A DNA stretch of 64,000 nt from a virus (lineage: Duplodnaviria > Caudoviricetes). A model generated the notes under the pieces. That model saw only the letters and a list, made by a program, of their open reading frames with translations. It was not told where the DNA came from and searched no databases. Location of the stretch: IMG/VR virus record IMGVR_UViG_3300001528_000360, positions 64,001 to 128,000 of that record. One strand, written 5' to 3'. Of the stretch, positions 48,845 to 51,640 are shown one piece after another (the stretch's first letter is position 1; every line of letters begins with the position of its first letter). Position numbers and translations under genes: made by a program.

Positions 48845-51640
48845 TTATTCAATTCCTTCTGAATCTATATTAATCTCAATTGTATATACATCATCATCTT
48901 TAAGTTTTCGATTTACATCGAAAGTTTTATTAAGTTCTGTACAATGTAAATTGAAATTATAATAATCTTCAATAGAATCAAAAGTAGGCGTAATGTTTAG
49001 ATAGTCTTTCTTATTTCCATAGAAAGATTCAATATCTTTATCGAAATTAAATTTAAACCCTTCAGGTTCATGAGAACCATCAAAATACAATCCATCTGTT
49101 TTACAGAATGGTGTCATGATGGCACTTGTACCAGGGTCTGATGTCAGTAATGTTCACACAAGGTCGTTACTCTTATGTAGTTCTCTTATGAACTTCTCTA
49201 TATCATCTATAGAGCTCAGACTATATCTTCATCCTTTATTAAGGAGCCCTCCATTTCCATCTACTTAGATGTACGTGCTAAGCACTAGTCGTTGAACCTT
49301 CATAATCAAAAACTGCTATCTGATCATCATCTGAATAAATTATATTAGAAGACTTAATTTTCTTTTCATCTATTTTAGTACAGGAAATTTCTGCTATATT
49401 ATTTTCTTTAAGAAACTCAGAAAGTTTCTTAATAGCTTTATGAAATTTTCTATTCCCTTTAGATGTAAAGAAGAATTTTGTACCTTCAGGAACTCTTATA
49501 TCAGGAGCTTTTAATTTATATTCAAATATAGCTGTAAGTCTAAATATTTCATTTTCACAGCTATTGGGTTTAGGATGATCATTAAAATCATATTCATAAG
49601 CAGTTGTAATAATTCCTATATCTGTATCTTTTGTTGAATACCGATATAACATATATATTCTCCTTTATGTTGATTATGCTTGGTTGCTGATTATCTTATA
49701 AAAGACTTTCCAGCAATTAAGAGAGATTTGTATAATGTATTACTACATTATGCGGCTAATAATCTACCGCAGACATTAATATCTAAACGGCCTAAATAAC
49801 TTGGATCTAACATATATCTTCATATAGAATCGTTAGTTCTATACCGTTCAATAAAGAACAGCTCTATATTTCTATAGAGATGAGACTATATCTTCAACTT
49901 AGTTAAGTTGCTCTCCATTTCCATCTACTTAGATGTACATTTAGTCGTTGAACTTTTCAATCTGCATTAATAAGAAATTCACCATCCTCATTATAGTTAG
50001 AGATAACATAAATAGTATCAGAATTTTCCTGGCTTTCACCAATATATCCTAAACTAATTGTACTAATCGGTGTAAGTGCTTTCTTATCGTCTACTTTAAC
50101 ATCAAGTAACATAGGTAGGTCACCATATTTTTCAATAAGGTCCTCCATGTTCTTAACAAAAGTACTTGCCATTACAATTTTCATTTTTTTCTTCCTCCTA
50201 TATATAATACAAATTGATTTAGCTGCTGATTGTCTACAGCATTACCTGTTTAGAGATTCCAGCAATTAAGAGAGTTACGTAGCTTATTTTCAAACCACGA
50301 TATTTAGTACTAATGTTATTATCATTATTATTTCCTAAGGAATTCGGTCCTTTAAATGTAATTTTGAGCTTTCCAAATATGTCAAGGTCATTTACACTAT
50401 CATCATACCTTAATAAGCCTGACTTATGCAACTGAGATAGTATAAGATCACCTTGGAACTTAAATATTTCTTCAACATTTTTAAGTGTTGCCTTTGATCC
50501 CATTCCAATAATTCTATTTACTCTATCACTAAACGTCTTCGTGAGAAGCGATGCTATATACTCATTACATCTAAGACGTTTATTTTCCAAACTCATATTA
50601 TCTTTCTTTCTTAGATCAGAGAAATTCTGAACCAACCATCTTACAATTGAATAAATATTCTTTTTATGAATAGGATGTAATTTAAGAATACGTTTTGTAG
50701 TATCATCAATCATACGATCAAAGAATACCATAGTATTCAATCCTTTTTCATATTGAGAATTTTTATTAATCGTTCCGATTGCTCCTAATTCTTCAATCCA
50801 GAAATCTTTATTTTCTAAGTTATCAATAGACATTCGATTTGTCATTAATGTTAACAACATGAATGCCATAGATTTTACATACGTATATTTATAAAAGAAA
50901 TGCTTATTTACTTCTAAGAATAACTTTGAGTTTACACTAAAGTAAATAAACTCTTCTGTATTTTCAGGACTTTCAACAAATCTAATAATTTTATCAACTG
51001 AATAATATTTTAAAGTTTTCTTTAGTCCAATCTTTGCTAAATAAAACAAAAGAATATCTACATTCTTACGGAACACAAGAATTGTATACGTAGGAGCTGT
51101 AAATGATTCTCCTGTTGTAGATTTTGCTGTATACTGTTTTACCTTAATATTAATCGGCATCATAGATTTTAATACAATAGCCGACTTTGTTGTATAAGAT
51201 GCAGAGTCAACGATCTGATATAATAAGAAATATTTATTTCCTTTAATCTTATAATACAGATTATCATCAGGAACAGGAATCAATAATTTCTTTGTGATAT
51301 TTTTAGATTCATCATTGCATTCCAGATGAAATTTCAGACGAAGTTCTGCATATCTTGAATCCTGAAGATACATATATCTTGTAGGATCATTCTTCTTTGT
51401 TTTCGTTCTTGATTTGGCATCAATATACTCACTCGTATTAATTTCAGCTTCATTGGTTACATAATCATATCCAAGGAATTTTACATACTCAAGAACTTCA
51501 AGAGACTTACAACAATCAACTATATAATTAACCAAGTCATCGTCGTACTCTCGATTAATTAGAGGGTAGTTAAATCGTTCTTCATTAGGATTTTTATATT
51601 CTTTGATGAATTTATACATACGATGCATCAATCCCCTCAT
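48845..51640 (-). CDS. Multisubunit RNA polymerase beta subunit, N-terminal part, 3 exons, ~563 aa spliced
   Basis: Exons 51640-50294, 49810-49766, 49144-48845; IKGNKYFLLYQ, KGPNSLG...YRG|LDPSYLGRLDINVCG|TSDPG matches the beta region D pattern. Confidence 0.9.
49145..49765 (-). mobile_element. Group I intron (betaN intron 2), 621 nt, with a non-endonuclease ORF in the P6 loop
   Basis: P1 UGCGGU/GCCGCA; ORF enclosed by stem CATAATCAA/TTGATTATG between Q and R; ends in G. Confidence 0.93.
49278..49652 (-). CDS. Intron-borne hypothetical protein, 124 aa
   Basis: Own AAGGAG RBS; no HNH, GIY-YIG or LAGLIDADG motif; last codons overlap the intron R element. Confidence 0.8.
   Translation of the reverse strand: MLYRYSTKDTDIGIITTAYEYDFNDHPKPNSCENEIFRLTAIFEYKLKAPDIRVPEGTKFFFTSKGNRKFHKAIKKLSEFLKENNIAEISCTKIDEKKIKSSNIIYSDDDQIAVFDYEGSTTSA
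49811..50293 (-). mobile_element. Group I intron (betaN intron 1), 483 nt, with a small non-endonuclease ORF in the P6 loop
   Basis: P1 CGUGGU/GCUACG; ORF between Q and R; ends in G. Confidence 0.93.
49957..50184 (-). CDS. Intron-borne hypothetical protein, 75 aa, acidic
   Basis: AGGAGG RBS; intact ORF; no complete endonuclease motif. Confidence 0.75.
   Translation of the reverse strand: MKIVMASTFVKNMEDLIEKYGDLPMLLDVKVDDKKALTPISTISLGYIGESQENSDTIYVISNYNEDGEFLINAD

Follow-up and report, generated by a model that had tools for sequence, protein, structure and literature searches.

A group I intron in a jumbo-phage RNA polymerase gene with a conserved small acidic protein gene in its P6 loop

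As usually pictured, a phage group I intron is empty or else holds a homing endonuclease gene. Here we describe an intron in which a conserved, apparently non-nuclease gene takes the place of the endonuclease. The stretch of DNA analysed, hereafter the window, is 64,000 nucleotides (nt) long and consists of bases 64001-128000 of the 152-kb IMG/VR virus record IMGVR_UViG_3300001528_000360, which is ~62% complete and has 30% G+C. The intron (intron A) interrupts betaN, the gene for the beta subunit's N-terminal half in the non-virion RNA polymerase, and its P6 loop holds an open reading frame (ORF) for an acidic protein of 75 amino acids (aa), the passenger; a second intron (intron B) lies in the same gene. 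L-numbers denote metagenome loci of relatives, and P-numbers denote homolog clusters or representative proteins from the searches.

Gut jumbo phages rich in group I introns and HNH genes have been described (PMC12880540). An intron with the HNH endonuclease gp210 is known from the RNA polymerase gene of jumbo phage PhiPA3 (PMC11620839), which like betaN is a multisubunit RNA polymerase gene with a group I intron at a polymorphic site. In PhiPA3 the cargo endonuclease drives phage competition, whereas the betaN intron of the window is without an endonuclease, although in a relative, L022, that site is occupied by an HNH intron. Also related are the T4 td/I-TevI intron and the SPO1-type I-HmuI HNH introns (PMC3984707), in which, as here, a group I ribozyme within an essential phage gene holds a P6-loop ORF that has its own ribosome-binding site and whose end touches the core helices. 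The sister introns of the window's genome, which have NUMOD4 plus HNH_3 genes in P6, share this likeness. Intron A differs from these systems in that its cargo encodes an acidic protein of 75 aa devoid of any nuclease motif, and in that the family of this protein is also found in P8, in the P9 region and at a free-standing site.

In fungal mitochondria an rnl intron carries rps3, and there too the ribozyme is the carrier of a non-endonuclease gene. Among bacteria, cargo of another sort is known from the IStron, a group I intron joined to an IS200/605 transposase, in which the ribozyme likewise acts as a harmless carrier of a gene other than a homing endonuclease (PMC4227781). The window's intron has no transposase, and its cargo is not a relocated housekeeping gene but a family of small proteins that is particular to the clade and shifts between loops and between host genes. 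Phage 'morons' and early host-take-over genes are small accessory genes with their own translation signals and variable presence among relatives. The passenger gene resembles them in having its own ribosome-binding site and in varying in presence and place among close relatives, but it sits in ribozyme loops and not in intergenic gaps, and neither a promoter nor a terminator was found for it. We found no mention of non-endonuclease cargo in a review of bacterial group I introns (PMC3984707), a survey of Bastillevirinae introns (PMC11878797) or the paper describing an intron and endonuclease database (PMC11835236), the pipeline of which considers only ORFs of at least 120 aa and annotates only endonucleases.

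The betaN intron and its passenger gene

Exon 1 of the host gene is 30% identical over 98% of the query to AR9 gp105, PBS1 and related jumbo phages (tblastn), and the gene matches the 'polymerase' family PHROG 2943 at 3e-24; 419 betaN homologs were found in total, and 120 clusters are listed. Judged by these matches, the betaN identification made in the original prediction is right. The virus is an uncultured AR9-like gut jumbo phage.

By its helices and junctions, intron A is a group I intron with an intact ribozyme core, and its removal restores the conserved protein exactly. Splicing out introns A and B in silico yields KYRG/LDPSYLGRLDINVCG/TSDPGTSAIMTPF, i.e. KYRG/LDPSYLGRLDINVCG/TSDPG, and the uninterrupted P0016 (555 aa, 84% identical) reads KYRGIDPSYLGRLDINVCGTSDPG across both junctions with no change in length. 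The longer stretch of P0016 is KYRGIDPSYLGRLDINVCGTSDPGTSAILTPF, many further uninterrupted homologs agree with the spliced reading, and AR9 gp105 has KLRGLHPSYLGRL...DPG at a spacing equal to that in the spliced product. The intron starts at 50293 because P1, formed by GTGGTTT (50298-50292) and AAGCTAC (50285-50279), places its U.G pair at U 50294, the last base of exon 1 (...CGTGGT, ending at T 50294); the terminal base of the intron is G 49811, after which TTAGAT... is able to lengthen the guide-sequence pairing by 3 base pairs (bp). These ends coincide with the boundaries first proposed, 49811 and 50293, and the exon separating the two betaN introns has the 45 nt first noted.

Helices P3, P4, P5, P6, P7, P7.1, P8, P9, P9.1 and P9.2 of intron A were located by coordinate, and both conserved core motifs, TTCAACGACTA and AAGATATAGTC, are present. 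A minimum free energy (MFE) fold of a mini-intron, with the ORF swapped for GAAA, recovers most helices, P3, P4, P5, P6, P8 and P9 being predicted. The Rfam model Intron_gpI (RF00028) scores 47.4 bits on the 3' part and 21.8 bits on the 5' part, neither of which reaches the gathering score of 50, since the model is split by the 247-nt insert in P6 that holds the ORF. Intron A is predicted to be self-splicing.

The passenger protein has an isoelectric point (pI) of 4.18, with 14 aspartate and glutamate residues against 6 lysine and arginine residues and no histidine or cysteine. As had been noticed from the sequence at the outset, its gene lies in the P6 loop behind an AGGAGG and ends at the closing stem: the TGA stop (49959-49957) falls within the P6 3' strand AGATTGA, of which the last codon and the stop (GAT TGA) form part. 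The loop is compact, consisting of 26 nt plus the ORF with no spare sequence, and the exon-1 frame reads 19 codons into the intron, stopping upstream of the passenger's ribosome-binding site. Upstream of the ORF there is an AT-rich stretch, but it has no match to the AR9 early-promoter core ATATATTAT and nothing is common among the copies; no terminator belonging to the ORF was identified. Since an open frame of at least 75 codons arises in 3.9% of shuffles of intron A, the length of the ORF alone is weak evidence for a gene.

That the passenger ORF is a real, maintained gene under purifying selection is judged instead from its conservation and from the ratio of nonsynonymous to synonymous substitution rates (dN/dS). 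An exhaustive phmmer search over 1.84 billion representatives returned small homologs at E 3e-12 to 7e-4 (P0004, P0006, P0007 and P0009), of which P0004, with 78 aa and 48% identity, is the closest (E 3e-12), and a subsequent profile search widened the family to ten clusters of 75-88 aa. Two further entries of that search, the giant repetitive proteins P0005 (Big_9/cadherin repeats) and P0008 (NACHT-LRR), were set aside as spurious. Full-length homologs, at 31-51% identity, all retain the start codon, the ribosome-binding site and the length; a purine-rich ribosome-binding site precedes every copy, and M1, M5, S7, D22, P24, I40, S62 and N63 are invariant in the seven intact members. By the Nei-Gojobori method dN/dS is 0.20-0.27 between the window copy and its relatives, 0.22 between L006 and L016, and 0.08 for the near-identical pair L004/L013. 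These values of about 0.2, together with ten homolog clusters, speak for a conserved gene and not a chance frame, as the original prediction had required. Every cluster traces to metagenomic contigs, some of them 100-250 kb long, whose genes are those of related jumbo phages; no further members were found in GenBank phages or IMG/VR, and one further locus was found in JGI metagenomes. On present searches the family is new: it has neither a named relative nor a match by fold, and it has turned up in one phage clade only.

The passenger product is not a homing endonuclease, as far as its sequence tells, since it has no nuclease motif and no DNA-binding features; profiles recognised no catalytic motif of the HNH/NUMOD4, GIY-YIG, LAGLIDADG or PD-(D/E)XK types. 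The family members are of 75-88 aa and acidic throughout (pI 4.2-4.7), with no histidine and at most one cysteine in any of them, compared with 186-293 aa for the sister HNH proteins. There is no detectable similarity between the passenger protein and the six HNH genes in sister introns, and alignment of the family with the five aligned HNH ORFs of the genome by hhalign gave a probability of 0.7% over 11 columns. The GIY-YIG or HNH remnant that had been named as the finding that would overturn the prediction is thus not what the ORF is.

Distribution of the family among intron loops

Copies of the gene in relatives were placed by bracketing with group I core motifs (Table 1). The copies in the P6 loop of a DNA-polymerase intron likewise end with a stop codon within the P6 3' strand, and that intron has a 79-aa ORF in P8; those in the P8 loop of another polymerase intron are placed between P3' and J8/7. 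The family has a distant relative in a 65-aa ORF of the L016 intron, located in the P9 region (hhalign probability 69%, E 4e-5, 53 columns). Four of the five known lineages are intron-borne, across three loops and two host genes, and the family for this reason looks like a habitual intron resident. The original comparison of the N-terminus with ordinary small phage proteins does not hold in this light, as the family is not an 'ordinary' gene captured once.

The L016 intron (L016:2640-3555) contains three small ORFs, of 61 aa in P6, 80 aa in P8 and 65 aa after P9, each with a ribosome-binding site, and no endonuclease gene. Its 61-aa ORF and an 88-aa P6-loop ORF of L007 share only an N-terminal helix and a GD motif with the family.

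The DNA-polymerase gene of the relatives has three intron sites within about 25 nt, after LLA, KID and ANG(L), and in L004 a micro-exon of 11 nt (GCCAATGGCCT) separates two of the introns. At the ANG(L) site the P6 loop holds the passenger family in L004 and a 116-aa ORF in L007. The proposal that P6 is a general cargo cassette gains from this difference in cargo within one loop; it loses in that cargo also sits in P8 and, as a distant paralog, in the P9 region. More generally, the loops of introns have the look of interchangeable slots in which small accessory genes are lodged. Another P6-loop ORF of L004 (L004:6706-7014, 102 aa) has retained no more of an HNH endonuclease than its NUMOD4-like N-terminus (YYWISNCGRIHS) and is likely a decayed endonuclease gene.

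Free-standing copies, for which a homology search had been proposed, were found in relatives (L007). The free-standing gene is flanked by a terminator-like hairpin, which follows the last polymerase exon, and by a conserved structured RNA, and at the same place L004 has only a ribosome-binding site and a 3-codon stub, ATG AAT GAT TGA. The structured RNA, downstream of the last DNA-polymerase exon (L007:5295-5490 and L004:7955-8150), has an MFE z-score of -7.1 and compensatory double changes at 7 of 37 consensus pairs in a comparison of two sequences only; it has no Rfam family match and is absent at the corresponding place in the window.

Table 1. Features of the betaN gene and its introns in the window, and places of the passenger family and of clustered introns in relatives
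Feature	Position	Strand	Basis
AR9 gp105-like gene (N-terminal half of non-virion RNA polymerase beta)	51640-48845	minus	host gene of introns A and B
Exon 1 of betaN, ending ...KYRG	50294..51640	minus	tblastn and PHROG 2943
Group I intron A, 483 nt, IA-like with P7.1	49811..50293	minus	helices, Rfam partial matches, junctions against uninterrupted homologs
Passenger gene, 75-aa acidic protein	49957..50184	minus	ORF, homologs, dN/dS
Ribosome-binding site AGGAGG, 9 nt upstream of ATG	50194..50199	minus	sequence; unpaired in predicted local fold
TAG stop of exon-1 frame, in P5 3' strand	50234..50236	minus	ORF 50234..51640
P3 of intron A	50274-50270/49915-49911	minus	located by coordinate
P4 of intron A	50265-50259/50229-50223	minus	located by coordinate
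P6 5' strand TCAATTT	50211..50217	minus	7 bp with 49963-49957 (AGATTGA); seen in mini-intron MFE fold
Catalytic core 3' half	49884..49952	minus	Rfam matches and helix mapping
J6/7-P7	49952-49942	minus	intron A core
P7.1	49935-49922	minus	intron A core
P3'	49915-49911	minus	intron A core
P8	49910-49895	minus	intron A core
J8/7-P7'	49894-49884	minus	intron A core
Exon 2 of betaN, 45 nt = 15 codons, encodes LDPSYLGRLDINVCG	49766..49810	minus	matches IDPSYLGRLDINVCG in uninterrupted P0016, HPSYLGRL in AR9 gp105
Group I intron B, 621 nt, P1 TGCGGT/GCCGCA	49145..49765	minus	sequence and Rfam
124-aa ORF in P6 loop of intron B, continuing through J6/7 and P7	49652..49278	minus	ORF list
Exon 3 of betaN, starts TSDPGTSAIMTPF..., to stop codon	48845..49144	minus	read from sequence and homolog alignment
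Family in P6 loop of DNA-polymerase intron	L004, L005, L013-15, L027		core motifs bracket gene
Family in P8 loop of another DNA-polymerase intron	P0007, P0013/P0014; L006, L016-20		core motifs bracket gene
Family free-standing, downstream of polymerase gene	P0009/P0011; L007-12, L021		locus reading
Clustered polymerase intron sites	L004:4497-5640; L016:2640-3555; L007:1595-2380		motif/exon reading

Proposed role of the protein and competing explanations

The explanation we favour, with a probability of roughly 0.68, is that a self-splicing betaN intron carries a conserved non-nuclease accessory gene whose product acts in trans for the phage. Intron A would have to splice itself out of the betaN RNA, since both the gene and the motif that it interrupts are essential, and the 75-aa protein would be made from its own ribosome-binding site, either on the excised intron or on unspliced RNA. 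Ribosomes reading through from exon 1 would be ended by the TAG in P5 before they reach that site. As the passenger stop codon lies in P6, translation and ribozyme folding would exclude each other on any one molecule: a ribosome terminating there would open P6, cover J6/7-P7 and block folding of the core on that molecule.

The protein could be a 'moron-like' early accessory protein, probably active in host take-over or counter-defence, for which intron loops in highly expressed essential genes would be a safe, co-transcribed harbour. Intron A would be unable to home alone, and endonucleases acting in trans, recombination among copies or vertical descent would have to keep or spread it. As such, the 75-aa family is a candidate small effector of gut jumbo phages, and the locus offers a system for asking how endonuclease-free introns persist or spread and whether cargo pays for the intron load of jumbo phages.

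Several results weigh against this explanation. The passenger family has no function match in Pfam (E up to 1) or among PDB sequences, PHROG gives only weak matches (E 0.004) to families of unknown function, and PADLOC gives no convincing match, with one weak match to DpdF (E 0.047) for P0014. The structure predicted by AlphaFold for the 75-aa protein is poor (predicted local distance difference test, pLDDT, 62), and searches with this model found nothing usable, whether by Foldseek against the PDB (best E 0.96), by VIA-align against 48,161 PDB representatives (best Z 3.1) or by fold search of BFVD (best E 0.37). In addition, the family is small, about ten clusters with some on very short contigs, and three copies look frameshifted or rearranged (P0006/L027, with a 2-nt deletion in L027, P0011 and P0012), which therefore points to occasional decay of family copies or to assembly errors. 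With the record ~62% complete, the window's phage could possess a second, free-standing copy. Finally, a protein that served the spread of the intron instead of the phage would likewise be expected to be under purifying selection.

The AlphaFold model comprises a helix at residues 6-20 and strands at 25-29, 40-48 and 58-61, and a search of the ESM Atlas with the 75-aa protein returned only unnamed viral clusters. One candidate identity was tried and, on sequence grounds, rejected. AR9-like phages have uracil DNA, and in the AR9 genome the gene for Ugi lies directly upstream of gp105; because of this adjacency and the uracil DNA, and because the passenger protein is small and acidic, a Ugi-like inhibitor was considered. 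Comparison of the family with AR9 Ugi (the PBS2/AR9 g104 uracil-DNA glycosylase inhibitor) by hhalign gave a probability of 0.2%, i.e. no sequence similarity. A Ugi homolog was not found in the 62%-complete record, which says nothing either way.

Among the alternatives, the one that survives best, though we regard it as unlikely, is that the protein serves the intron as a homing helper or competition factor. For example, the protein could guard or process ends cut by an HNH enzyme acting in trans, or it could block the intron endonuclease of a rival phage or host repair. A role of this kind would explain why the family tracks intron loops in four of its five lineages, three loops and two host genes, and its occurrence both in loops and free-standing mirrors that of homing endonuclease genes. 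Furthermore, the endonuclease of a jumbo-phage RNA polymerase intron mediates phage competition (PMC11620839). The protein is, however, strongly acidic with no nuclease or DNA-binding features and has no known partner, and the single comparison of the intron copy and stub of L004 with the free-standing copy of L007 fits a need of the phage no less than one of the intron.

A reading of the ORF as the decayed remains of a homing endonuclease gene, or as a frame open by chance, with no function in either case, is very improbable and close to refuted. It would accord with the frequency of long frames in intron shuffles, with a Y-V-I-S-N-Y near the C-terminus that is similar to 'Y.(I/V)SN.G', the NUMOD4 motif found in the sister HNH proteins, and with the existence of a truncated HNH remnant in another intron, the 102-aa ORF of L004. 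The homologs at 31-51% identity have kept start, ribosome-binding site and length at a dN/dS of about 0.2, and the loop is compact; a decayed HNH or GIY-YIG remnant in particular is rejected on the Pfam null result, the hhalign probability, the acidity and the absent histidine. A maturase-like splicing helper for its own intron has least to commend it, for although the gene lies within the intron and organellar group I introns offer known examples of maturases, about 19 of the genome's sister introns manage without any ORF, the free-standing copy of L007 is tied to no single intron, and a pI of 4.2 makes an RNA binder unlikely.

Beyond the accessory role that we prefer for this one protein, a tentative and rather doubtful extension is that the group I introns of this jumbo-phage clade are mutualistic carriers, with small protein families swapped among P6, P8, P9, host genes and free-standing sites. 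The carrier families would then include the 75-aa acidic family, the 65-aa paralog, the pair of 124- and 116-aa ORFs and others, and their genes would benefit phage or intron, for example in counter-defence by DNA mimicry. Mutualistic cargo of this kind would explain how the genome tolerates 27 or more introns.

Intron population of the clade and the neighbouring intron

Most of the betaN homologs in the 120 clusters listed are full length, about 555 aa, and uninterrupted, while some break off at an intron site, of which there are at least five in a span of about 60 codons (after HKSGL, TFKG, KYRG, NVCG and GTSD). The stretch HKSGL...GTSDPG is a clade-wide intron hot spot (P0016-P0134), and the interrupted gene calls read on into LIAG/NCG, i.e. 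the P4 sequence AATTGCTGG. The comparison of intron states that the original prediction had called for can be made at site A (after KYRG): it is empty in most relatives and, among the homologs listed, occupied only in the window and in L022 (betaN 80% identical), where the intron is of a different type with an extended P5 and an HNH gene in P6. The HNH protein of L022 is 43% identical to the best HNH of the window's genome. Site B is occupied in L023 by an intron without an ORF. A single-sequence search of IMG/VR for close betaN relatives found none.

Pairs of group I core motifs (J6/7-P7 with J8/7-P7') number 18 in the window (1400-62700) and 27 in the whole record. About 19 introns of the record have no ORF, with a P6 region of 31-41 nt, and 10 such sister introns in the window pass the Rfam gathering score. 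NUMOD4/HNH_3 genes occupy P6 of six sister introns, at window positions 20476, 56229, 57793, 59640 and 61619 and once outside the window. Mobilisation of intron A in trans or by co-conversion with HNH introns had been suggested; co-conversion with those of this genome is unlikely because the nearest lies about 6 kb away (window 56.2 kb), and a trans-acting enzyme is possible.

The 5' half of intron A (window 50200-50293) is closest to an ORF-less intron at window 34371-34317 (93% over 56 nt) and the 3' half (window 49811-49965) to window 6260-6119 (85%). As the two halves have different closest copies, recombination among the intron copies of the genome is suggested. Introns A and B are only 79% identical over their 3' halves, compared with up to 85% to other copies; since they are not each other's closest relatives, separate origins fit, and the introns look mosaic and not like products of tandem duplication. 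The two captures may have been independent, as first suggested, or intron and ORF may have moved together from the polymerase gene.

Intron B has a 124-aa ORF in its P6 loop, to which the passenger ORF is unrelated by sequence comparison, as was originally noted. The 124-aa ORF is weakly similar to the 116-aa P6-loop ORF of L007 (L007:1697-2047; 29% over 77 aa, E 4e-5). If this similarity is homology, the two betaN cargo types may alternate in one orthologous polymerase-intron loop, because the P6 loop at the ANG(L) site holds the passenger family in L004 and the ORF resembling the 124-aa type in L007. The fold neighbours of the 124-aa ORF in the ESM Atlas are unnamed bacterial and viral clusters of 115-142 aa.

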